A program made the translations under genes and the position numbers. From Massalongia carnosa (taxonomy: Eukaryota): 64,000 nucleotides of DNA. Location of the stretch: assembly GCA_965645245.1 (NCBI GenBank), contig OZ287087.1, positions 1,240,001 to 1,304,000 on the forward strand. The letters run 5' to 3'. Numbering within the stretch: position 1 is the first letter of the stretch; each line of letters begins with the position of its first letter. The notes under the pieces were generated by a model. It was not told where the DNA came from. It did no database searches and was given only the letters and a program-made list of their open reading frames with translations. Below, piece after piece: positions 60 through 59,298 of the stretch.

Positions 60-839
60 ATGGCCAACCGCCTTATTAACGAAGGCTTCCTGGTCGACCA
101 CGAGATAAAGAACTGCGAAAAATTTGCGAAGAGCTGCAAGCTGACGCAGTGCTTTAACTGCTACAAATACGGACATATAGGAAAACGTTGCCGCAATCCT
201 ACGGCGTGCGGCCACTGCGCCGGCGGGCATCCGACCAACGAATGCAACCCGGAAACAACCGGTAGACAGAAGAGATGCGCATGCTGCGACGAGAGAGGCC
301 ACGTAGCGTGGGCCCCCACATGCAAACTCAGGATACAAGAAATGAGTAAGATAGAGAAGGCTAGGAAAAGCTCGTCGCAGCTCTTCGCTACGGGCAACCC
401 GATCGTAGCACGATCATTCATCTTTTCGTCCCAGGCCCCAACTGACAAAGAAAGCAATGCAGCACTAGGAGAGGCAACGGAAAGCCCCGTCAATGGTATC
501 CCGAAAGTTGCCAGCAGCAAGAAAAGTAAAACCGCCCCATACGGCTCTCATGAAGTATCGCCGGCAGGCCCAAGCCGCCCAACAGGAACGTCGTGGAAGG
601 ACACAGAGATCATGAAGCCCATGAACATGCAAAGAGCAATGGCAAAGCCCATTCTAGGCAGACCACCCAACACGTCAACGACGATGGCTGCAACACCCGC
701 CACCACCCGCACCAATCCCGCCGCCCACCCGCTGCAACCTTCCCCGCCGACCCCCGACACACCTCCCCCCCTCGACGACCAAGGACTAATTACCCGCACC
801 GCTCCTGCAACGGACGTAATGGAAGAAGGATGTTTATGA
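60..839 (+). CDS. LINE ORF1 (gag-like nucleic-acid binding protein), C-terminal part
   Basis: CFNCYKYGHIGKRC, CGHCAGGHPTNEC and CACCDERGHVAWAPTC knuckles; the stop TGA overlaps the ORF2 ATG (ATGA at 836-839). Confidence 0.9.
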   Translation: MANRLINEGFLVDHEIKNCEKFAKSCKLTQCFNCYKYGHIGKRCRNPTACGHCAGGHPTNECNPETTGRQKRCACCDERGHVAWAPTCKLRIQEMSKIEKARKSSSQLFATGNPIVARSFIFSSQAPTDKESNAALGEATESPVNGIPKVASSKKSKTAPYGSHEVSPAGPSRPTGTSWKDTEIMKPMNMQRAMAKPILGRPPNTSTTMAATPATTRTNPAAHPLQPSPPTPDTPPPLDDQGLITRTAPATDVMEEGCL

Positions 840-3800
840 AGGACACAAACTCCATTAACATACTACAGTACAACGTCAGAAACGACCGAGTAAGTACAAT
901 GATAACACTTTTGGCAGATTCAAACACGCAGGACTACGACGTTATAGCAATACAGGAACCATGGCGGAGCACGCACGCCCCGACCACTCTTAGCTCTCAC
1001 CAAAGCGGATTCCACCTTCTATATCGCCCCGGCGGCGACACACGCGTATGCTTCTACGTCAACGAGAAAATCGACCCGGAAAGCTGGGAAGTAGAATTCC
1101 CAACCGCAGACCTATGCACGTTGAAATTGAACGTGAGCACCGACGGTGTTACGAGAACGTTGCACATTCATAACGTGTATAACCCGTCCCCGTCTTCTTA
1201 TTCATCCACAGACAGCCCCTCCACGCTCCCGGCTGTTCGTCAGCAACTCGCCGCAGATGCACAGCACGTCCTCCTCGGCGATTTCAACCTTCACCATCCA
1301 TTTTGGAACGGAGTCACAAGGCCAACGCAACACGCAGCCGCGGACCAACTACTGGATATAGTAGAAGAATTCGATCTCTCACTTACACTGCCCAAAGGGA
1401 CCGTTACATGGGAGGCTCGGAACTCTTTTAGCACCATAGACCTAGTATTTATGTCGGAATTCCTGACGGAAAGACTAGAACACTGCATGTCGAGACCGGA
1501 AATGAACCAATCCTCTGATCACATCCCGATTTCTACCCGCATTCTTCTCGGTAGTGAACAGCTAACGCAAGTCAAGCGCAGAGCATGGAAACTGCTGAAC
1601 ATGGAGAAACTGAGAGAGGCAGAAAGCAACGCCCCGCCCGTCACCCACCCCCGCTCCGCCGAGGAAATTGACCAGTACGCTCAGACAATCCAAGAGTATC
1701 TTCAGAAAATCATAGCCGCCTCCGTCCCCTGGGCCAGACCCAGCGAATACGCGAAACCTTTTTGGAACGAAGAATGCAATCGCGCCATCCGCGAGACTCG
1801 CAAATTGCGCCGTTCCTGGTCGTCATCGCGTCACATTGACGACTGGAAAGCGTACATGAAGTCCAACGACAAGAAGCAAAAGATAATCCGAAAAGCAAAA
1901 ATGCTCTCATTCCGCAAAGAGATCAGTGCAGTCACCGAGTCGCCGCTGGGCATATGGAAGCTGGCAAGATGGGCAAAAGATAGAAGCCAGAAGCCCCGCG
2001 AGATACCGAAAATGCCGCCACTGAGGCACGGAGGGCAGACGGCAGAGACGTTCGAAGAAAAAGCGGAAATGCTGAAAGCCAAGTTCTTTCCCCCACCACC
2101 GCCGGCGGACCTGAGCGACATTCCTGGGTCATTCTACCCCGCTGCCGCGGATTGTCCCATGATGATCACAAAGAACGAAGTGATCGCAAACATACAATGC
2201 CTCAAGTCCGACAAGGCTCCGGGTCCTGACGGGATCACCAACAAAATCCTCAAGGCATGCACTACAAAGCTAGCAGAATTGCTAACCCCTTTATTTCAGG
2301 CGTGCGTCACGCAAGCGTATCATCCTCGCGAGTTCAAAAGAGCGAACACGATAACGCTCAAAAAACCGGGAAAGAAAGACAACACCAGCCCAAAGGCATA
2401 TCGGCCCATAGCTCTCCTGAACACAATGGGTAAAGTTCTAGAAGCGGTCATCGCAAAGAAAATCACCCACATAGCAGAACAGCATCGGCTCTTGCCCGAC
2501 ACGCAAATGGGTGCTCGGCGAGGGCGATCCACCGAGTCCGCACTCGAGCTTCTCACAGAACAGGTATACACCGTATGGGGACAAGGCAACGACAAGGTGG
2601 CAACCCTACTCAGCATGGATGTGGCAGGTGCGTTTGACACGGTGTCTCACCGTAGGCTAATACACAATCTACGGAAAAGGAAATTTCCGAAATGGATCAC
2701 AGACTGGACAGCAAGCTTTCTGGAGAATAGGAAAACCACATTAGCAATAAATCGGCGAGCAACCGGGGAGTTCGCAGTGCGCACGGGTATTCCTCAAGGC
2801 TCGCCCATTTCCCCTATTCTGTATCTGTTCTACAACGCGGACCTATTAGAGAATTGCCAGAGACCCGGCACGAACACGAGTGCGCTGGGATTCGTAGACG
2901 ACGTAAACGTGTTGGCATACGGTAAAAGCACGGAAGAAAATTGCAGAACTCTTGAAAGAATTCTCAGGAAATGCGAATTGTGGGCGACACGGCATGGCTC
3001 CGTATTTGCACCGGATAAATATGAAATCATTCATTTGTCAAGAAATCCAAAGAAATTCAACATGACGGCCACTATTCAAATTGAAACCAATCTGATTGAA
3101 CCAAAAACGGACATAAGAGTACTGGGCCTACAAATCGACAGAAAACTAAAATGGGGAGCTCATATACGGAAGACGCAGGAAAAGATGACGTCGCAGTCGC
3201 TAGCGCTCACAAAAATCTCGGCATCCACCTGGGGAGCATCCTTCGCAAAGGCCCGGCAGGTCTACACCTCCGTCGTCCGCCCGGCAATGACATACGGAAG
3301 CGCCGTGTGGCACACGCCCAAGGAAATCAAGAAAAACAAGGCCACGATGTCCAAACTCAGTGTCATGCAGAACAAATGCCTACGCACTGTGGCAGGAGCG
3401 TTTAAAGCAACACCCGTCGAGGTTCTCGAAGCGGAAACGTTTCATCGCCCCTATGGAGCTACACTTGGATCATCTGCAGATGAAAGCAAGATACCGCCTA
3501 CGGGCCTCAGGGCAAGCGAAACTGATCACCACTGCCTGCAGCACAATAGCGAACAAGCTACGAGGCAAGGCAGGACGCAAAAGAATACAACGCCCCACCC
3601 TAGGAGATTTAAAACACGAATGGGCCAGCAAGATTCTAAACAACGAAGCCCCAGCCACAATACCGCCGCCGCCCCGACCCTGGTCAGGACCCGACCCTGT
3701 CCGTCTCGAGAAATACATCACGGCACGCCGAATTATCGGAAAGCACGCAAAGACCATTACAGTACGAATCAAGGAGCGTTGGGAGACCAGGTAGAAGGCG

Positions 3801-4193
3801 TATCAGGACCGCGTTCCCTACCCAACAGAGGCACAGCTCGGACCACTCAACAGAACTAGATTGAAGATTCATGACAACTTGATGAAGGCGGAAATAACCA
3901 CGCAAATCCGCACTGAGAAAATAGGTTTGGCAAACTTCCTGTTCAATCGTCGGGTTCCGGGAGCTATGACTCCAGCTTGCTCGTGTGGCTGGCAGGAACA
4001 GACTGCCAAACACATCATATTACACTGCAGACTAATCGAAGGCAGATATGAGCTGCTCAGACAATTGGGCACCCACGACTACCGGACGATTACGCGTTCG
4101 TCGAAAATGCTGAAAAAGCTAACTGCATGGATAATAAAAGCAAACTTGTTAACACAGTTCTCACTAGCATCGCAAATGTTATACGAGATATAA
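836..4193 (+). pseudogene. LINE ORF2 (AP endonuclease + reverse transcriptase + CCHC), disrupted
   Basis: ILQYNV, AIQEPW, LGDFNLHH and SDH endonuclease motifs; PGPDGI, YRPIALL, GIPQGSPISP and FVDD RT motifs; frameshift near 3441, TAG at 3792, then CSCG...HIILHC. Confidence 0.93.
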
Positions 4194-4396
4194 CTTCTCA
4201 TTTTCGTCAAGGATTCTAAAGAAAAACGATCACAGAGAGCAGCCTCTTGCCAGCGAGGCTCCGGAGGTAGTGCGTAGTCTACGGGGTTTTTATTCCCAAG
4301 AAGAGTTTTCCTTGTATGATAAACATAGACAGCCCGCATGGGCCGGCCTTCGGCCGGTGTCATATCGGAATAAGAATAAATCAATCAATCAATCAA

Positions 4397-7300
4397 CGTA
4401 ACGTGTTGTGCTAATATGATAAATGCATTATTTATCAAGTCATTTTAAAAAAAATTTCAAAATCATCAGAATCAAATATCTGCGCATTCATGAAGACGTC
4501 ATCTTCAAAAATCAAATTGACGTTTTTACATATAATTTCATCATGATTTTCGAAATAAATATTTTATCAGAATCAATTATTTTATTTTTCGCTGCGATTT
4601 TAAAACGTGAACGTGACAAATTCAAAAAACATTTTCAAATAAAGAACATATTGTTTTTTTGGTTCCACACGATTTTGAGTAAACCAGATTACGCATTTAC
4701 ATACGAGAACAGTGACACCGAAAACTCATTCGTTTTTCTTTTCACAATCTTAATAAAAAAAGAATCATCAGAATTATAATATTACGATGCACTGTTTCAA
4801 CTGAACATCGTTGAATTTAAACATATTCTCAAATTATGAAAGATTTATATTCGAATAATTGAAGTCTTTTCATGAACAGTGAACATAATAGTTTTATTGA
4901 AAACGAAACATGAATTCTGATCAAAACCGAAGACATAAAACTCAATCATACTGCTTTCAATGAAAAATAAATATTCAAGTTGAAACGGAACGTTATCGAG
5001 ATTATCACACGATAAAAATTCAAGTAAATGATGAAAGATTATTTTCAAAAATACGAGATAAATTTCGAACAGATTTATATTTTCGTAATGAAATCAATGA
5101 TCTTTCAATTTTTGTTCGTTTTCTAAATTTATCATAACTTGATCATCGAATAACTTGATATCGTTACATCATTCTTATATAAAGTAATAAATCAACTGAT
5201 TTACGTTCATATGTAAAAAGAATATGAAAAGTCGAACATGATCTGCAAATTGAACAAGATTTTTTATAATTTGAATCATTTTTCACGTTTATGATACGAA
5301 CGTTTATCGAAAATTTTATTTATCAAATCAAATCTGTTTAAATTTCATGTAGATTATATTATCTTTTTCTTTTCGACAAGAATCAGAAATTCAATTGTTA
5401 TCTTTTTCGTTGATGATTAGAATATCATAAATTCAAAGAAACTCTCGATAATATTCGATTTAAAAAAAACAATTAAACCTTGCAATCAAAATAATAAACA
5501 TAAACTCGATCAATCATTATTTAAATTTAAAAGTGAAACGAAATCGCGTTAACAGAACAATTAAATTATTTCAATTTACTTATATCGAAAAGATTCTGAA
5601 GAAATTTCATTTGCAGAACGCAAAGATCGAAATTATTTCAATGGAAAAAGATTTATTCAAAAATGAATTTCAGATTTCAGAAACAAACATCAAAAAATAT
5701 TAAACAATCGTGGATTTCATTATGTTTGTTATGATAAAAACAAGATCGAATATAATTTACGCGATTTCAGTGATCAATCGATATGTCAAAAATTATCTAC
5801 TTATTCTTACAGGTAAAACCTTTTAAAGTGATAATAACCATGCAGACTGCGCCATTATCCCAAACATGTTCCGTTTCTGGACTGCATTCTTCGCTCGATG
5901 TTCTGTGAAATCCTTGACAAAATGAGAGTTATCACTCGTATAACAGTTGCGATGCTAGTGAAAATTGGGTCAGCAAATTTGCTTTTATTATCAATGTGGT
6001 TAGTTTTTTCAACATTTTCGACGAGCTCATGATCGTTCGATAGTCGTTGGTGCCTATATGTTTTAGCACTTCGTATCTGCCGTCGATTAGCCTGAAATGT
6101 AGAATGATATGTTTGGCTTTCTGCTTCTGCTATCCGCACGAGCAGGCCGGGGTCATAACGCCCGGTACCCGACGATTGAACAGTAAGTTTGGCAAGCCTA
6201 TTTGCGTTGTTAACGCGCTTTCCGCTTACATCAGGTTGTTGTGAATCTTCAGTCTCGTCCTACTGAGAGATCCCAACTGTGCCTCTGTCGGGCGGGGAAT
6301 GCGGTTCTGGTACGTCTTCAATGTAGAGTCCCAGCGTTCCTTAATGCGTTCTGCTGTGGCCTTTGTGTGTTTCTCTATGGTATTGCGTGTCGTGGTGCAT
6401 TTTTGGAGGTGCGCCGGGTCGGGTGTGGACCAGGGCGGGGGCGATGGGAGCATTGTGACTGGCGCCTCGTTATTCAATATTTTGCTGGCCCATTCGTATT
6501 TCAACTCTCCTGGGGTGAGGTGTTGCGTTCTTTTGCGTCCTGCCTTACCCCGTAGCTTGTTCGCTATTGTGTTGCAGGCTTTGGAAATCAGTTTCGCCTG
6601 CCCTGCAGCCCGTAGACGATACCTTGCTTTTATCTGTAGATTGTCCAGATGCAACTCCATGGGGGCGATGAACGTTTCCGCTTCGAGAACTTCGACGGGT
6701 GTTGCCTTGAACGCCCCTGTCACGGTGCGTAAGCATATGTTCTGCATGACGCTGAGTTTGGACGTGGTGGCCTGGTTTTTCTTGATTTCCCTGGGTGTGT
6801 GCCACACGGTGCTTTAATAAGTCATTGCCGGGCGAACGACGGCCGTGTAAACCTGCCGGGCCTTCGCGAAAGAAGCTCCCCAGGTGGATGTCGAAGTTTT
6901 TGTGAGCGCCAGCGACTGCGACGTCATCTTTTCCTGTGTTTTCCGTATGTGGGCTCCCTATTTCAATTTGGTGTCGATTTGGAGGCCCAGAACTCGTATT
7001 TCCGTTTTCGGTTCTATTAGGTTGTTTTCTATTTGAATAGTAGCCGACATGTCGAATTTCTTTGGATTTCTGGACAAATGAATGAGCTCATATTTATCCG
7101 GTGCAAATACGGACCCGTGGCGTGCCGCCCATAGTTCGCATTTTTTGGGAATTCTTTCGATAGTTCTGCAGTTTTCTTCCGTGCTCTTGCAGTATGCCAA
7201 CACATTTACGGCGTCTACGAATCCTAGCGCGCTCGTGTTGGTACCGGGTCTCTCGCATATCTTTAAAAGGTCCGCATTGTAGAGAATTGATTAAATTGTT

Positions 7301-28896: not shown

Positions 28897-29552
28897 TATA
28901 TATATCGAATTTTCGAAAGAGTTTTAAAAAGAAAAGTTCGATCGAATCAATAAAACGCGACGATGTGAAAACGCGAATATAATGATTCATTGCTGCCACT
29001 TTCGCATTTATAACTGAAAAAGTTAGAATGATTTGATTTAACAGATCGAGGCTGTTAAATGAAACGAAACAATCATTTTTCGAAGATTTCACTTTAACAC
29101 TTGATACTCTCGCTTTTTTCAGATTTTTATCATCATTATCAATCATGAATCTGTTTCGCACATGATGATTGATTAATTTAAGTTTTCTTCCCGATTTTTC
29201 GAAAACAGATTCTCTGCAGTACGATTTTTATTAATTGAATCAAAAATCGCGATGAATTTGACAACTCGATTTCTCCTCTTCGCATGTATAATACATTTCA
29301 TCTCGTTATTATGAGAATTCATATCGATACGCATTTGATAAAGATAAGATTGATTCACCATTAATAGATTATTCACAGCGTCGATGACAAATATGTGATT
29401 GAACGATATTATTTCGTCAATATTAATTTCAACGTTATCACATATATTTAAAAATTCTTTTCGATCTTCAATATGAAAATTAAAATTGATAATGAAATAA
29501 AGTCGCATAATTAAATTCTCTCGTTTGATCACGTTATACGTCATTATAGATT

Positions 29553-29621
29553 CTCCTTCTATACCATCAGTCCTCCTCCTTCTACACCATCAGTCCTCCT
29601 CCTTCTACACCATCAATCCTC
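29553..29621. repeat. 23-bp tandem repeat x3
   Basis: CTCCTTCTA(C/T)ACCATCA(G/A)TCCTC three times. Confidence 0.9.
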
Positions 29622-29803
29622 ACCACGAAGACGCTAAAGGCCTCACCGTGGGGTGACCGTCAAACATAGATTTGCTCCTATCTCTTCGCATCAAAACAAT
29701 GCTAATTTAACGCGTTCATACGCGTCGCAGACTTACGTACGGAAGAGGATACGAAAGCCAACCGCCGGGTGGTAGAATGCGCGCGTCCCTGCACAATGCT
29801 TCT

Positions 29804-30517
29804 AAGGGTTCAAGTCCCTTCATGGAGTAATCAGCTGGAAGAAGATGTGGACCAAATGAGCCGCATCATCCCCAACCCGGGCACAGTCGACACGCGTTCT
29901 AGCTCCTGAGAGTTCAAGTCTCCCCATGCAGTTATCAGCTGGGATCAACAGAACACGTAAAAGGAACCGGGGCGAATGCTGTCACCTCAAGAAAACTCTA
30001 TCTCGGAGTAGAATAACATTATCCCATTTAATAGGCCCGGCCTGTTAAATAAAATCGAGGAAAACACAGAGTCACAAAACACATAGTCATCAATCATACG
30101 TTGTATAAAGCACAGAGTCACAAACATACAGTCACAAACACACAGTCACAAAACACACAGTCACAAAACACACAGTCACAAATAACACAGTCACAAATCA
30201 ATAACACGTCCTGGTGAAGGGGGTTCTGCGGGGGCTCGTTAAGACAGATCTGCACCACGTTAATATCGGAGTACATATTTTTAGAGGTTCAAGTCCTTTC
30301 TAGCAGTCATCAGCTGAAAATAATTTATTTTAACACGGGCATGGTATGGATTTGACACGGGTAGACCTCGATGGATCACAAAACGAATGAAAAATGTTCA
30401 GCGGAACTTCGTTAATATTGTTCTCGAAGACCTCGTTAATAAGATTTTCATAGACCTCGTTAACAACGTTCGTTCATACTCTTAAAGGTTCAAGTCCTTT
30501 CATGCAGTTATCGGCTG
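29804..30517 (+). other. Four dispersed 34-nt tRNA T-arm/B-box-like modules
   Basis: Modules at 29804, 29908, 30283 and 30484: 5-bp stem, TTCAAGT loop, then CATGCAG-like 7-mer and TNATCRGCTG. Confidence 0.75.
30061..30197. repeat. ~15-bp minisatellite (CACACAGTCACAAAA)n, about 8 imperfect copies
   Basis: Repeated cagtcacaaa units. Confidence 0.85.
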
Positions 30518-31321
30518 AGAGCTAAAGACGTATGACACGGGTCAGCTATGTCTATCAGACAGGTCTCCTTCGTCTACAAAACGGAGCCCTCCGGCTGAAA
30601 GAAATGAAACATATAGACACATAGTGTAGGGTCACACCCTACACGATACAAGGGATTTAGGTTATGAAAACAATCCGATTGATTGCTACCGTGAGCAACA
30701 CTGCCCGAACCGGAGTCGTACCGGGGATGGTAGAGGCAACTTAGTCATCAAATAGGACACCCTTGGGACAAGAAGAGGGCAATATACGAGGAACCCGTTA
30801 ATTGATAACAGTCTAGGCCCTGAGCTAATAGACGAATTTCAAACGAGCACCCCTCCGAGTTGTCCTTGACACGTTTTGGTTAGTAGGGACGGCAAATCGA
30901 TACTATACTGCCTGGTCAGGAGCATAGCTGTCGAAATCCATGCGAGACATATTCGGTTCATAAACGGGAGACCTTTATGAATAACGTGAAGTGGGCGTAA
31001 AAAACCCGTGAGGCGTGGTATGCAATGGCGGCCACCGTACAGAGACCGTCTGCATAGCCCGAGAGGATAGTATGCGCATGTCGGTGTATATAGAGCAGGG
31101 AATGTCTATCTCGCTCGTATCGAGACCCCGTCTGTTCGCCGGCGCATAGGCTATGGCTAGACTCGCCTATGATATATGCTTAAGGAGTAAACTGGGTTTG
31201 ACCTGGGTGAAAGGGACGTCATTACCCTAATCGTAGAACTTATCAATAGCCTTAGGCCGTAAAACGCACAAGTAAGGTGAACGAAAACTGGGATAGAGAC
31301 TTCACGAAGGAGATGTTAACT

Positions 31322-34300
31322 CTATTTTATCATTCTTAGCCCAGTAGTCGCCCCCGTACCGGCCCCGTTCAGGTTCCAGAGCGAAAACATCAACCCGGTC
31401 CTTGGCAGCACAAACAGCAAAAAGAGGAAAACCATACCCCCCTTCGATAGCCCCGCGAATCCCCCACGAACGGGAACATCCTGGGCTGACACGGGTATCA
31501 TGAATCCAGAAAACATGAAATAGGCCCTTGCAAAACCAGTTGTAGGTAGACCCCCACTCAAACCCCGAGCTATATCTACTGCCCCGGCGATAATCAGAGC
31601 AAACAACACCACCAACGACCCCTCGACCTCCCAGGCTGAATCAATGAACGTCCTATGAGGGACACGAAATCTCTCTCCATATTGCAGTACAATGTCAGAT
31701 ATGACAGAGTGAGTACAATGTTACCCCTCTTAGCCGATCCGAACACTCAAGACTATTACATTATCTCAGTTCAGGAACCCTGGCGCAATCCATCTATTCC
31801 TACCACGTTAAGCTCTCATCAAAGTGGGTTTCATTTATTATATCGCCCAAATGGAGACACGAGAGTGTGTTTCTATATAAATGATACTATTGACCCTGAT
31901 TGCTGGGAAGTAGAGTATCCATCGGCCGACATGTGCACCCTAAAATTTCGAATGAAAATTGGAAACACATCGGACGCGATCCACGTCCACAATATGTATA
32001 ATCCCTCTCCCATTTCCTATTCTTCCATAGAAAGTCCGTACACGCTAGCAACAGTGAAACGCCAATTAATTGCATAGACAAAACACATTTTACTGGGCGA
32101 CTTCAACCTACATCATCCATTGTGGAATCATTCGTCGAGGCCTACTCAACATGCTGAGTCGAAACAATAACTGAACATAATTGAAGAGGCAAATCTATCA
32201 CTAACACTTCCAAAAGGCACAATTACATTGGAGGCTAGATAATCGTCTAGCACAATCGATCTTGTACTCATGTCAGAAGAACTAATGGATAGACTAGAAC
32301 ATTGCATGTCAAGCCCGGAACTCAATTAGTAGTCCGATCACATTCCGATCTCTACCCGAATTGCGCTAAACAGTGAGGGTCAAACAATCAGAGAACACAG
32401 GGCCTGGAAACTGACGAAAATGAGAAAACTGAGAGAAGCGGAAAAGAGGGCGCCCCCCCCCGAAGACCCCCCGATCCCCCACCGAAATCGATGCTTATAC
32501 CGTGTCAATTCAAAAATTTCTTCAAGAAGTGATATAAACCTCTGTACCTTGGGCTAGACCCAGTAAGTACGCCAAACCCTTTTGGAATGATGAATATAGT
32601 GTGATCACGAAAGAAACTCGTAGGCTCAGACGTGTCTGGTCCAATTCCAGAGAAATTTCTGATTGGATAACATACACAAAATCCAATCACAGAAAACAAA
32701 AAATCATTCAAAATGCTAAAAGACTGTCGTTCCGCAAGGAAATAGAAAAAGCCACTGAATCGCCTACTGATCTCTGGCGACTAGCTAAATAGGCGAAAGA
32801 CAAAAGTGATCAGACAAGAGAAATTCCCAAAATGCACAATCTCGTTCGAGACGACCAAGTAGCAGAGACGTTCGAGGAGAAATCGGACATGCTAAAACAG
32901 AAATTCTTTCCACCCGCCCCTCCGGCCGACTTCAGCGACATAGAGGGTTCATTTTACCCTAGCCCGCCACAATGTCCAATGATCATAACTAAACTAGAGG
33001 TAATGGAAGCCATACGCCGACTCAAGCCCGATACGGCCACGGGTCCGGACGGAATAGCCAACAGAATTGTAAAGGCATGCTCGGAAAAGCTAGTCGAATT
33101 ACTCACCCCACTGTTTCAAGCATGTTTAGAACAAGCATATCATTCTCGTGCATTCAAAACCGCCAACACAATCACGCTCAAGAAAACAGGCAAGGATGAC
33201 TATTCGGCCCCGAACGCCTATCGACCCATAGCACTCCTAAATACGCTTGGAAAAGTAATGGAATCTATCATGTCACAAAAAATAACCCATCTAGAGGAAA
33301 CCCACCGACTCCTGCCCGACACCTAGATGGGCGCCAGACCAGGAAGACCAACCGAATCTGCACTAGAATTGTTGACTGAACAAATTTATACAGTGTGGGG
33401 CCAAGGCACAGACAAATTAGCAATATTATTGAGCATGGACGTAGCAGGAGCCTATGACACAGTGATAAATCGAAGACTGATATACAATCTTCGCAAAAGC
33501 AAAATCCCAAAATGGATCACTGACTGGGTAAACAGTTTTCTGAATGAAAGAAGCACTACCCTGGCGATTCACAGCCGAGTCACGGGTATATTCGATGTAA
33601 AAACCAGAATCCCACAATGCTCCCTTATTTCTCCTATTCTTTATCTGTTCTACAATGCAGAACTACTAGACATATGTGAAAGACCAGGCAGCAACACGAG
33701 TGCTCTAGGCTTCGTAGATGAAATCAATGTGGTAGCATACGGAAAAAGCACCGAAGAAAATTATAAGACGCTAGAGGTAATTCACAAAAAATGTGATAAA
33801 TGGGCAAGTCGACATGGTTCAGTTTTCGCTCCGAAGAAATATGAATTGATACATCTGTCAAGAAATCCGAAGAAATTCAACATGTTCACTGTTATTCAAA
33901 TAGGAAATAACATCATAAAACCAAAGACAGACATCAGAATTCTGGGACTTCAAATCGATTCAAAATTGAAATGGGGTGCTCACACAAGGAAAATCAAGGA
34001 AAAAATGACAAAACAATCCAGGGCATTGACAAAAATATCCACCTCCACATGGGGCGCCACTCTTCTAAAGGCACGCCAGGTTTACACCGCCGTAGTCCGG
34101 CCGGCCATGACGTACGGCTCCACAATTTGGCACATGCCAAAAGAAATTCAAAAATCAAACGTCCTCTCAAACAAACTAGCTGTCATACAAAACAAATTTC
34201 TAAGAAACATAGCCGGAGCCTTCAAAGCAACGCCCATAGCTGTACTTGAAGCAGAGACATTTATAGCCTCAATTGACATACATTTAGATCAACTACTGGC

Positions 34301-34735
34301 CCAGACCAAACAACGCCTGTGTCGAAATTGTCAAAAGAGTTTTATCACAAATGCATGCAACAAAATAGCCAATAAACTTCGAGGTCGGGCAGGACGCAAG
34401 AGGGCCCCAGTCATCACTCCAGGAACGCTGAAATACGCCTGGGCCAAGAGAATCACATCGAAGGCACATAACCCTCCAACACCGACACCACATCCACCAA
34501 GGGCCGAATCCCCCCAGAATCTCGCCCGAGAAATATGGGAGGCACGCGCCGCTCATAACAAAATAACTGCTCAAATAAAAAAACTACACACATTTGCATC
34601 GCAGGCCTCGTGGAGATCATATCAGGAACACACACCCGTTCCTACCCCGGCACAATCAGGTTCACTCTCCAAAAAACGCATCAAATTGCACGAAACTCTA
34701 GCCAAAGCGGAGAGCGCGCTAGCCATTCAGCTACA
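31322..34735 (+). mobile_element. Tad1-like LINE fragment (ORF1 end plus ORF2 with many stops), truncated at both ends
   Basis: ORF2 from ATG 31655 (ILQYNVRYDRVSTM) through RT to ESALAIQL; no 3' UTR or tail; clear similarity to the LINE at 1-4396. Confidence 0.92.
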
Positions 34736-35149
34736 TTCTTCATCAAATGAATAATCGTTCGCGTTATTCTCGTCAATTCGAATTGAGTGAATATCAGCAA
34801 TTTGATTCGCATAATTAAATTGATTAATCAATATTGTTGAAATAGGTATATGACTATGGCTATATTGCTATGTAATAATAAAGGTATGTATGACCGTGAT
34901 GTTAAGGATGAAGAGTTGCTAGGCAGCAATCTTTTCCTATTACGTGTTACCCCCTTCTAAGCGAGGTGATCTTATCTTATCTTGGGACTAAGCCTAATGC
35001 GGCATCTACGGTTTCCGTAGATGAGCTGTCTATTTAGGGCAGCCGTAGGTGCTATGTTCATCGTACTGATAGGTGTTCATTGTGCTGGTAGGAATTGGAT
35101 ATTCAACACCCCCCCTCAAGTCCTACCAGTACTTGTTTCAATCGTGGAT

Positions 35150-38555: not shown

Positions 38556-39047
38556 AATGGGAGAATGGGGAGCAATTGAAAAAGGCGAGAAACTTAGTAG
38601 TGACTGAAAGAATGTCGATCTGAGACCTTTCTTATAGACAAGGAAAAAACAGTCCCTCCTTAGCCAGTGTCTACTCTGATTTCTCAATAGAGAAACCTGT
38701 TTGCTTAACATGCTTGTTTGCCATGATGAGAATTTCAACTCCGGCTTTTTCAAGGGTCCAATTGACCAAAAGCAAATTGAGCGCAGGGTTATTCCAATTT
38801 GATCTAACCGGCCTTAGACCGGTTAAAAATAAGAGGCAACTGCCGCACAATCTCATCTAGTGCCTTAAGGGGGCATAATTGCCAAAAAGAAAGGTCTTTA
38901 TACCTTCGATCAATGAGTTTACTAAGCTCATTGATGTCCGAGGGATTTTGTATTTTTTGCGTGTCCAGAACTCAACCACGGGTGAACTGACGCTTTGATG
39001 ATTTTTGAACCAATGGGGCGCTCAGGGCCAGCAATATACTTTTTTTT

Positions 39048-39800
39048 GCCTTCGACCATCGAGCTTAGCGAGCTCTTTTGGTTTCCGAGGACTTCGGCGC
39101 CTTCGACCATCGAGCTTAGCAAGCTCTTTGGTTTCCGAGGACTTCGGTGCCTTCGACCATCGAGCTTAGCGGGCTCTTTGGTGTCTGAGGACTTGAGTGC
39201 CTTCGACCATCGAGTATAGCAAGCTCTTTTGGTGTCCGAGGACTTGAGTGCCTTCGACCAGCGAACTTAGCAAGCTCTTTGGTGTCCGAGGACTTAAGTG
39301 TCTTCGACCATCGAGCTCAGCAAGCACTTCTGGTGTCCGAGACTTGGGTGCCTTCGACCATCGAGCTTAGCAAGCTCTTTGGTGTCCGAGGGCTTGAGTG
39401 CCTTCGACCATCGGGCTTAGCAAGCTCTTTGGTGTCCGAGGGCTTGAGTGCCTTCGACCATCGGGCTTAGCAAGCTCTTTGGTGTCCGAGGACTTGAGTG
39501 CCTTCGACCATCGAGCGTAGCAAGCTCTTCTGGTGTCCGAGGACTTGAGTGCCTTCGACCATCGAGCTTAGCAAGCTCTTTGGTGTCCGAGGACTTGATT
39601 GCCTTCGACCATCGAGCTTAGCAAGCCCTTTGGTGTCCGAGTACTTGAGTGCCTTCGACCATCGAGCTTAGCAAGCTCTTTGGTGTCCGAGGACTTGAGT
39701 GCCTTCGACCATCGAGCTTAGCAAGCTCGTTGGTGTCCGAGGACTTGAGTGCCTTCGACCATCGAGCATAGCAAGCTCTTTGGTGTCCGAGGGCTTCGGT
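39048..39800. repeat. 50-bp tandem array (~15 copies) in the Copia 5' leader
   Basis: Unit GCCTTCGACCATCGAGCTTAGCAAGCTCTTTGGTGTCCGAGGACTTGAGT. Confidence 0.95.
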
Positions 39801-40467
39801 GTAGTACGATCAATGTGTTTATACTCTTTCTAACTTGCAGTTTTTGTGCTTCTGACAAGAAACCGCTGTGTACAGAAGAGAGAACTGATTGATGTGATTT
39901 AATGGATCGTTTCTAAAGACACAGAAAGATTTTAATCATGAGTCTACGATTCATTGAATAGGAACGATGCTTAGCTGATTGCACTGCGAAGCTGCGGATT
40001 AAAAGTTTCGATTCGTTTAAATCTATAGCACCCTTCCCGGCTCATAACCTGTTGAAATAGGAATATGACTATTGCTATATGGCTATGTAATAATAAAGGT
40101 ATGTATGACCGTGATTTTAAGGATAAAGAGTTGCTAGACAGCAATCTTTTCCTATTACTGGTCACCCCCTTCTAAGCGAGGTGATCTTATCATATCTTGG
40201 GACTAAGCCTAATGCGGCATCTACGGTTTCCGTAGATGATCTGTCTATTTAGGGCAGCCGTAGGTGCTATGTTCATCGTACTGATAGGTGTTCATTGTAT
40301 TGGTAGGAATTGGATATTCAACAACTATTTTCGCGCGTTTAATAAACTTTTTTTGTGTTATTCTCGACACATGTCGAATGAGATCGAAATATGTGTTTAT
40401 TGATTTTAAACATAACAATTCTCGCTCATTCAAATGAATAACATCATTTCGTTGATCGAAATCAAAC

Positions 40468-57800: not shown

Positions 57801-59298
57801 TCCTGGAAGCCCTTCGTAATAACGAAAGGCATCACAATCGAATCCAATTAGCCGAATGCGAAGATAGGGACGGTATCTTGTATTTTCGAAACAAGAAATA
57901 CGTACCTCGATCCGATCGTCTGAGGCTTCGTATCATTCAACTCGCTCACGATAGCGTCGCCGGCGGACATCCGGGCCGTTCCAAATGCCATGAGTTGGTA
58001 AATCGATCCTACTGGTGGCCCAGCATGTATCAGTCCATCAAGCGATTTATCCGAAACTGCCACACTTGCAGAAGATCAAAACCATCCCGCCAGCGCTATC
58101 AGGGCTGGCTACGCCCACTCCCCCCCCCCCTGAGCGCAGATGGCGGGATATTTCCATGGATTATGTAGGCCCCCTGACCCCCAGCACCTTCATGGGAATC
58201 ACTTATCGCTACATCTTGGTGGTTATAGATCGCCTGTCCAAGATGCGACATTTCATTCCTATCACGTCCATGGAAGTTGAAGACGCCGCCGATGCGTTCT
58301 ATCAGAATGTCTGGAAACTACATGGGCTTCCCGAAGCCATGGTTTCTGATCGTGGCCCCCAATTCGTCTCCGATTTCTGGCAGCTCATGTGCAAGAGGCT
58401 GAAAATCGACGCCAAGCTATCCACCGGATACCACCCGGAGACCGACGGGCAGACCGAGCGAGCCAACGCCACCATGGAGCACTACCTAAGGGCTTATGTC
58501 AACTACATGCAGGATGACTGGGCACAATGGCTTCCTGGCGCCGAATTCGCCAGCAATAACACCGATTCATCTAGTATCCTGGCCTCCCCCTTCCTAGCCA
58601 ACTTCAGGCAACATTCCCGCATGGGATTTGAACCGGAGGAACCCCTGCCGCAAGACCTAACCGCTCAGGGCAGAGCAAACCTAGTTGCAGCCAATCAGTT
58701 CGTGAATAAGATGCAGGATATCGACACTCATCTTCGAGACGAAATGCTGATGGCCCAAGCTTCGTACGAAGCAACTGCAAATGCTAACCGACGTCCCTGC
58801 CCCCGCTATTTCGTTGGCGATATGGTGTGGCTAAGCACCAGAAATATCCAAACCGCTCGCCCCACAGTCAGGCTGGATGACCGAAATATCGGCCCCTACC
58901 GCGTCAGCAAGGTGTTTTCCAACCCCTTGATCGTACAGCTGGAGCTTCCCGATACCGTCAAAATCCATCCCGTCTTTCACGTCAATCTGTTGCAGCATGA
59001 TGCCAATGACCCCCTCCCCGGGCAGAGACCGGAGCCTAGAGACCCCGTCATCGCCGAAGATGGCCAACGAGAATGGTATGTCAATAGGGTATTGAATTCC
59101 AAGCTCGACCGACGTTTTCAACCCCCGCTTCTGAAATACCTAGTGGATTGGGAAGGGCATCCTTCCACCTGGGAGCCTTTCAACTATCTCATCAATTGTC
59201 AGCAAGTCATAGACGAATACCACCAAGCCTATCCCAATGCGGCCGGCCCTCATCTAAATCCCTGTCAAATTCCCCGTTGCCAATGCCACGAGGCATAG
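54839..59298 (+). pseudogene. pol: Pol of Gypsy D (frameshift in the C-run at 58120-58130)
   Basis: LIDCDAS protease site, LRFCVDYRALN, YLDD, ETDASD, HPETDGQTE, GPY and chromodomain WYVNRVLNS..YLVDWEG. Confidence 0.92.

Follow-up and report, generated by a model that had tools for sequence, protein, structure and literature searches.

Structured cis-elements let the RNAs of retrotransposons be recognized, translated and copied. The R2 5′ RNA is a structured, cis-acting RNA of a LINE (a non-LTR retrotransposon), and both the HDV-like ribozymes at the 5′ ends of LINEs and mascRNA are known parallels for processing of the kind considered below. For LINEs with a separate endonuclease domain, we know of very few structured cis-elements outside the 3′ tail. 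Reportedly, 3′-UTR stem-loops are recognized by the ORF2 protein of stringent-type LINEs (PMC4176376), the 5′ end of L1Tc carries an HDV-like ribozyme (PMC3185411), and active variants of the HDV ribozyme are found in fungi, with no transposon link stated there (PMC5640933).

The locus that we compared with these systems lies in a 64,000-nucleotide stretch of Massalongia carnosa DNA (hereafter, the window), which is eukaryotic and rich in transposable elements, with several Ty3/Gypsy-type elements bearing LTR pairs as well as LINE copies that carry endonuclease and reverse-transcriptase domains. A sequence-only reading of this DNA had pointed out four 34-nucleotide modules, each containing a tRNA T-arm-like hairpin, and we found the modules, together with their stems and flanking motifs, where it had placed them (Table 1). 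The modules are dispersed, with spacers of 70, 341 and 167 nucleotides. All five stem pairs are Watson–Crick in modules 1 and 4, module 3 has four Watson–Crick pairs and one G·T, and module 2 has four pairs and one A·C mismatch. As read from the sequence, ACACG follows modules 2–4 at distances of 11, 16 and 17 nucleotides, respectively, and CGTTAA precedes modules 3 and 4 by ~20 nucleotides. By itself, the 11-mer GGTTCAAGTCC was within chance expectation in the 64-kb window: it had four matches with at most one mismatch (compared to 0.93 expected), a number reached by 3 of 100 shuffles, and the four included an unrelated site at 58624 on the minus strand while excluding module 2. The longer similarity among the modules, unlike that of the 11-mer alone, exceeds chance. 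In self-BLAST comparisons units 3 and 4 aligned over 88 nucleotides (E = 3.6e-8), and the other module pairs aligned over 34–41 nucleotides, as exemplified by modules 1 and 4 (35 nucleotides, E = 6.5e-5) and modules 1 and 2 (41 nucleotides, E = 2.3e-4). In addition, the covariance model R1 (described below), into which only metagenome copies went, matched the window at exactly these four sites, each on the plus strand.

The modules sit in the 5′ UTR of a decayed, multi-copy LINE. The sequence-only reading had placed them in an unassigned block, perhaps the leader of an undescribed element; the suggestion of a leader was correct, but the block is the 5′ UTR of a LINE whose ORF2 encodes an endonuclease and a reverse transcriptase. 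To delimit the element, we aligned the contigs of four public sequencing runs (one of which is labelled a lichen metagenome) to window positions 29200–31400. In three of the four runs, the summed contig depth, which is not a copy number and which we used solely to mark the border of a multi-copy repeat, climbed at ~29570 by one or two orders of magnitude (in run X2, from 28 to between 780 and 9600) and stayed high to at least 31345. In the fourth run, which had very low depth, coverage likewise started at ~29570, and individual contig pieces started at 29566–29572. Downstream of this border, tblastn searches with the ORF1 and ORF2 proteins of the LINE at the window start located remnants of both ORFs (Table 1). 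The ORF2 query came from this sister copy at 593–3859, which contains the Pfam domains Exo_endo_phos and RVT_1; its residues 82–1035 map to the ORF2 remnant in two frames, with 66–69% identity over residues 82–950. A Pfam RVT_1 match falls in 33327–34754, and a protein-family look-up of ORF2 returned reverse-transcriptase and endonuclease families. Because the depth step and the contig starts coincide at ~29570 and the ORFs lie downstream, the modules must lie within the 5′ leader of the LINE, ~230 to 950 nucleotides from its 5′ end. Past ~34740, unrelated AT-rich DNA and an LTR element cut off the LINE copy, and neither a tail nor a target-site duplication is readable.

Table 1. Features of the LINE copy and its leader, in window coordinates.
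Feature	Position	Strand	Basis or sequence
Three copies of a 23-nucleotide repeat (CTCCTTCTACACCATCAGTCCTC) at the LINE 5′ end, with the repeat border inside	29553..29621	+	Tandem Repeats Finder; depth step
Decayed, 3′-truncated LINE (ends approximate)	29570..34740	+	Depth step, contig starts, ORF1 and ORF2 remnants
Unit 1, junction core only (inner P2, T-arm-like hairpin P3, hairpin P4)	29799..29841	+	R1: 37.3 bits, E 1.5e-8, model positions 34–76
Module 1	29804	+	AAGGG-TTCAAGT-CCCTT-CATGGAG-TAATCAGCTG
Unit 2, junction core only (P3 stem with one A·C mismatch)	29904..29944	+	R1: 38.5 bits, E 6.5e-9, model positions 35–75
Module 2	29908	+	GAGAG-TTCAAGT-CTCCC-CATGCAG-TTATCAGCTG
Array of 9.2 copies of a 15-nucleotide tandem repeat (AAAACACACAGTCAC) that separates unit 2 from unit 3	30061..30197	+	Tandem Repeats Finder
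Full-length unit 3, with P1 as its outer stem, P1b (CGTT.../...ACACGGG), P2, T-arm-like P3 and P4	30247..30356	+	R1: 67.7 bits, E 7e-18, model positions 1–112
Module 3	30283	+	AGAGG-TTCAAGT-CCTTT-CTAGCAG-TCATCAGCTG
2.3 copies of a 24-nucleotide repeat duplicating the CGTTAA-bearing 5′ flank of unit 4	30409..30463	+	Tandem Repeats Finder; sequence
Unit 4, full length	30446..30557	+	R1: 65.0 bits, E 5e-17, model positions 1–112
Module 4	30484	+	AAAGG-TTCAAGT-CCTTT-CATGCAG-TTATCGGCTG
ORF1 remnant	31293..31604	+	tblastn with partial ORF1 of the window-start LINE (residues 117–238): 38% identity, E 2e-13
ORF2 remnant (endonuclease and reverse transcriptase), frame-shifted	31655..34516	+	tblastn with ORF2 of window 593–3859

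The 23-nucleotide repeat at the 5′ end of the LINE includes TCAGTC, which resembles an initiator. The 15-nucleotide array varies in length within the family, with contigs of other copies skipping 51–104 nucleotides or adding 15. Downstream of unit 4, window positions 30740–30900 match the flanks of a unit at another locus (L009), with TCAAATAGGACACCCTTGGG... upstream and ...TTTGGTTAGTAG downstream. This segment contains CCCGTTAAT and TTGACACG, lacks both the T-arm-like hairpin and CAGTCATCAGCTG, and has no R1 match; judging from these letters, it may be a fifth unit whose junction core was lost or replaced.

The window copy of the LINE differs from its relatives in a biased manner. Across 29200–31400 in run X1, the changes from the window to other copies comprised 28 A>G and 25 T>C, compared to only 4 G>A and 5 C>T, and this excess of A>G and T>C implies that G and C were lost from the window copy, making it a mutated relic. 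We infer from this spectrum that it decayed by C-to-T mutation, for example of a RIP-like kind. All of the copies that we examined around the last unit and the start of ORF1 were also decayed. Selection on the fold described below acted on active master copies. When compared with shuffled sequences, the four window units folded no better (z = +0.54, −1.39, +0.46 and −0.44), and in minimum-energy folds the T-arm-like hairpin formed in unit 1 only and was absent from units 2, 3 and 4. Such poor folding fits a decayed copy, and the case for structure is therefore made by the relatives.

Elsewhere in the window, which ranges in GC content from 0.29 to 0.53, an array with a 50-nucleotide period (39027–39881, at least 12 copies, 60–91% identity) lies within an LTR element whose LTRs, at 34835–35108 and 40050–40323, are 95% identical. 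The 3′ part of the LINE at the window start recurs inverted at 2829–4195 and 5927–7283, with arms that are 77–87% complementary and 1.7–3.2 kb apart, representing two LINE 3′ ends arranged tail to tail.

We searched for relatives by scanning metagenome contigs with a pattern that consisted of the loop, the 3′ arm as any nucleotide (N) and the tail, leaving out the 5′ stem arm. The scan recovered 60 distinct copies at 47 loci, three of which look bacterial (L004, L044 and L047, with GC contents of 0.63–0.68); in a collection of prokaryotic genomes, only four sites matched the same pattern. Among the 57 non-bacterial copies the stem was paired at all five positions in 50 and at four of five in the remaining 7, with 21 distinct stem sequences, one of which is a transversion-type pair (GATGG/CCATC), whereas the seven prokaryote-like chance matches paired at only 2–4 of the five positions. 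The stretch CAGTTCAAGTTCGACCTSGCAGTGATCGGCTG, common to five of these seven matches (L004, L044, L047 and L048–L051), looks like conserved coding sequence from some bacterial gene that has nothing to do with the LINE motif.

A LINE ORF was detectable by tblastn with the window LINE proteins at 19 loci. At 18 of them, the units precede the ORF and share its strand; the remaining locus (L029) has a weak match on the opposite strand. The ORF2 proteins of these relatives are only 32–57% identical to that of the window LINE, whereas the module cores are 81–92% identical to those of the window, a conservation that is partly by construction, since all loci were found via the conserved core. From the start of the leader to ~30600, only the four modules could be aligned with any locus; a further alignable block spans 30620–31220. 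We refer to the hosts as fungal-looking because ordinary fungal genes (for example, a Fungal_trans_2 gene) lie near some copies and because one run is labelled a lichen metagenome.

The number and spacing of units differ among the relatives. In the JAABU-type family, units are arranged in tandem with a 183-nucleotide period behind a leader of ~290 nucleotides, and at three other loci (L010, L020 and L028) they are in tandem with a period of 116–119 nucleotides. Three loci from different metagenomes (L010, L030 and L046), 74–86% identical to each other, carry one and the same internally deleted element, in which the leader, the units and ~600 nucleotides are followed by ORF2 from about residue 790. 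This shared structure suggests a non-autonomous lineage that spread after its deletion, and what it has retained is the leader, the units and the 3′ part of ORF2.

Each module turned out to be the tip of a larger, apparently undescribed RNA domain of ~110 nucleotides, and not the free-standing 34-mer that had been proposed. In architecture, the unit combines P1, P1b, a short helix and P2 into one long, irregular stem, which ends in a three-way junction. P1, the outermost helix, reads for example CTTGGG/CCCAAG or CTAGGG/CCCTAG, and it is followed by P1b (CTYGT/ACRGG), in which Y and R covary. The flanking motifs CGTTAA and ACACG, although present as the sequence-only reading had described them, are not separate motifs but the two strands of this covarying helix. 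An internal loop (TAATAC opposite AC) and the short helix (TGG/CCA) lead to P2, which has ~10 base pairs and is free in sequence (for example, TTTCTATATC/GATATAGAAA at locus L039). The three-way junction comprises one unpaired T, hairpin P3, a 4-nucleotide linker (C-N-N-G) and hairpin P4. P3 is the T-arm-like hairpin, with five base pairs and the loop TTCAAGT (UUCAAGU in RNA); its closing pair is G–C in 95 of the 98 alignment cells with letters. P4 is an invariant small hairpin (CAGT-CATCA-GCTG). Compared by eye, the units may resemble helix 4 of 7SL RNA and the 3′ part of 5S rRNA.

Several other folds were tried and set aside. A pseudoknot between a CTTG linker and CAAG of the T-loop was rejected because the linker varies (CATG, CACG, CCTG, CTCG and CGCG) while the loop is constant, and because no connecting loop would be left. 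Threading by hand onto the hammerhead and HDV topologies also failed. In the hammerhead case, CTGATGA occurs in the antisense strand without a helix II and GAAA after it. An HDV-like fold with CTTGCAG as the 3′ strand of P1 would need CTGYGCAAG upstream, which we found only in the second units of the soil-type family; it was missing from the window, from the first units and from the 50 nucleotides that precede each JAABU-type unit, and there was no room for P4 or P1.1 of such a fold.

The sequence-only reading had attributed the compensatory stem changes to selection on RNA structure, and this interpretation was borne out both by the 57 copies, in which the 5′ arm lay outside the search pattern, and by alignments of whole units. 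RNAalifold, applied to an alignment of 31 units made from sequence only, predicted 13 pairs in P3, inner P2 and P4, eight of them with compensatory changes. In a MAFFT alignment of 16 units (A2) scored against a 36-pair structure, 84.6% of cells paired, compared to 33–46% when partners were slid, and both sides changed in 22 pairs, including all ten pairs of P2, although these counts lean towards the structure, since one of the A2 sequences supplied the minimum-energy fold on which it was based. On four of the five measures for A2, none of 500 shuffles reached the observed value, with the proviso that the shuffles ignore kinship and the copies are related.

We built the covariance model R1 from alignment A2 and applied it to the window and 44 loci, which yielded 118 matches at E ≤ 0.001, one to four per locus and always on one strand, and no match in the three bacterial-looking loci. 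Among the 99 distinct matches, 44 lacked the strict search pattern, and of the 43 model-only matches with letters in the loop, 35 had TTCAAGT and 8 had TTTAAGT. When the 99 distinct matches were aligned (A3), 86.4% of cells paired, compared to 45–51% with partners slid, and both sides changed in 32 of the 36 pairs, counts that lean towards the structure because A3 was fitted to the R1 model. P4 barely varied in A3, and for these sequences the covariation supports every helix except invariant P4. G·U and U·G cells outnumbered A·C and C·A cells by ~3 to 1 (382 versus 127), an excess that favours a fold in the sense RNA over one in the antisense RNA, with the caveat that R1 itself favours G·U. 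Considering these results together, we regard it as very probable that the units are an RNA structure under selection in a LINE 5′ UTR.

P4, the T-loop and the internal loops are nearly constant and so yield no covariation, and they could equally well be sites in DNA. The units might accordingly act primarily as DNA, either as promoter or enhancer monomers like those of mouse L1 or as TFIIIC-bound B-box sites that shield the element from silencing, with RNA pairing being secondary. The tandem JAABU-type arrays behind their leader would fit such a role, as would the fact that the most conserved letters (TTCAAGT, CAGTCATCAGCTG, GTTAATAC and ACACGGGC) are those without covariation; moreover, GGTTCAAGTCC and its hairpin fit the Pol III B-box consensus, and CAGCTG, which is also a palindrome, is an E-box. 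However, DNA sites would have no need of the covarying pairs of P1, P1b, P2 and outer P3 or of the excess of G·U over A·C, and we saw by eye no convincing A box when comparing with the consensus (GTTAATACTGG fits 4 of 9 specified positions). A Pol III unit also seems unlikely because T-runs adjoin some units, as seen both before and after unit 3. We therefore consider a primary role in DNA unlikely, with the qualification that functions at the DNA level and the RNA level could co-exist.

A second alternative, which we judge slightly less likely still, is that the units are RNA-processing signals that would trim read-through transcripts or release small RNAs, either by cleaving themselves as a new ribozyme or by offering RNase P or RNase Z a substrate that resembles a tRNA. 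The ~40 near-invariant nucleotides in the junctions and loops of a paired scaffold are typical of ribozymes, and the 5′ ends of LINEs are a known home of HDV-like ribozymes. Nevertheless, with Rfam 15 at a threshold as loose as E ≤ 5, no tRNA and no self-cleaving ribozyme (HDV-like, hammerhead, twister, pistol or hatchet) came up, either on six loci or at the modules in the window, and the upstream TGCAAG that could pair with CTTGCA is absent from the first units and from the window. The sequence-only reading had raised the possibility of processing at tRNA-like units, which the JAABU-type copies, from the one family whose 5′ ends could be mapped, speak against: all 19 with enough flank begin at one point, ~290 nucleotides before the first 183-nucleotide unit, and none begins at a unit. 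This shared start implies that the RNAs that were retrotransposed carried the whole leader, uncut at the units, and it argues against efficient processing in that family.

The resemblance of P3 to a T-arm also raised the possibility that the LINE captured a tRNA gene, or a tRNA-derived SINE head, and that the modules are its duplicated remnants, neutral and kept only by descent. P3 is a faithful look-alike, with five base pairs, a G–C closing pair and a loop of the TTCRANY type, and a D-loop-like sequence, GGTAGAAT, lies upstream of module 1. From relics, however, one would expect neither full pairing in 50 of 57 stems, which come in 21 different sequences, nor the retention of module cores as similar as those described above in LINEs whose ORF2 proteins have diverged so far. 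The sequence-only reading had stated that no complete cloverleaf can be drawn and had suggested tRNAscan-SE and Rfam searches; we used ARAGORN and Rfam. ARAGORN found no tRNA genes in the window or in 41 loci, and Rfam at gathering scores reported nothing in the window, where the matches at E ≤ 5, both weak and unrelated, were to SpR10 (30856–30899) and a CRISPR repeat (30645–30689). A neutral relic is thus very improbable, which is a separate matter from the evolutionary origin of the unit, which may lie in a tRNA.

Of the explanations considered, the best overall is that the units are structured domains of ~110 nucleotides, present in one to four copies per locus, that would act in cis in the 5′ leader of the LINE, a reading to which we assign a probability of roughly 0.55. 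Within the sequences compared here, the units occupy LINE leaders in the sense orientation, their strands pair and covary, and they are conserved across LINEs with 32–57% ORF2 identity. From LINE biology, we infer that the leader is transcribed as part of the LINE RNA.

How such a domain would act is more tentative. Our preferred but unconfident proposal is that the repeated domains of a sense LINE transcript would bind a protein or RNP and so form a platform that acts in cis. The partner might be encoded by the element itself, with its zinc-knuckle ORF1 protein and its ORF2 protein as candidates and RNP assembly or packaging as the process concerned, or it might be a host factor that recognizes T-arms. 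The domain would serve a step after transcription; RNP formation and export are possible examples, as is translation across a structured leader at least 1 kb long. A bolder and more doubtful version is that the unit belongs to a new class of structured RNA that mimics the tRNA elbow or T-arm and hijacks a host machine that recognizes tRNAs, or else represents a new ribozyme scaffold. In the case of mimicry, the long structured leader might be exported, translated or built into RNPs via the hijacked machine, candidates for which would include the L1 stalk or E site of the ribosome, RNase P, an exportin or a T-arm modification enzyme. A 5′ leader domain that is far better conserved than the proteins of its element and that bears a faithful T-loop hairpin points to a specific, testable partner. 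Model R1 also offers a convenient way to spot members of this LINE clade in metagenomes from fungi and lichens.

Literature searches returned no match to the invariant 14-mer GCAGTCATCAGCTG, and the matches listed for GGTTCAAGTCC appeared to stem from commonplace sequences such as tRNAs and phage attachment sites. Searches on LINEs, tRNA-like RNAs, UTRs, fungal structured RNAs and T-loops found no description of the motif; the 'T-hairpin' of Tj-cis is a different motif. Of two screens for structured RNAs in fungi, one states that it avoids transposable elements (PMC8216456), and no mention of transposons was found in the other (PMC5640933); this lack of coverage may explain why the motif is absent from Rfam. 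The domain is apparently new as a structured cis-element of a retrotransposon UTR, whereas the LINE family itself may be catalogued in Repbase or Dfam.

The units can be compared with four described systems. With the cis-acting RNAs of LINE UTRs (the R2 5′ RNA, HDV-like ribozymes and 3′-UTR stem-loops), they share a conserved sense-strand fold that lies in an untranslated part and is kept by covariation, and by analogy the likely partner in both cases would be the element's own protein. They differ from these RNAs in lying in the 5′ leader but downstream of the 5′ end, in occurring in one to four copies per locus, and in combining a three-way junction with a T-loop hairpin that has no match in Rfam and shows no sign of cleavage at the units. 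With retroviral constitutive transport elements and packaging signals, which act by binding a protein, the units share repeated rod-like hairpins with conserved internal loops in the RNA of a retroelement; there is no relation of sequence or family, and the likeness would be an analogy of form only. With the T-arm of tRNA and the Pol III B box, whose consensus they fit, they share a 5-base-pair stem, a G–C closing pair and the 7-nucleotide loop UUCAAGU, and the outer P3 pairs covary as they do in tRNAs. Unlike a tRNA, however, the unit has no acceptor, D or anticodon arm, its P3 joins the neighbouring helix via its 5′ strand, which is the mirror of the tRNA arrangement, and positions 6 and 7 of its loop (GU) are invariant. 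Finally, like the promoter monomers in the 5′ UTR of mouse L1, the units are repeated in variable number and in some families stand in tandem (with a 183-nucleotide period), but they differ from those monomers in being conserved across very distant LINEs and in possessing a covarying RNA fold.
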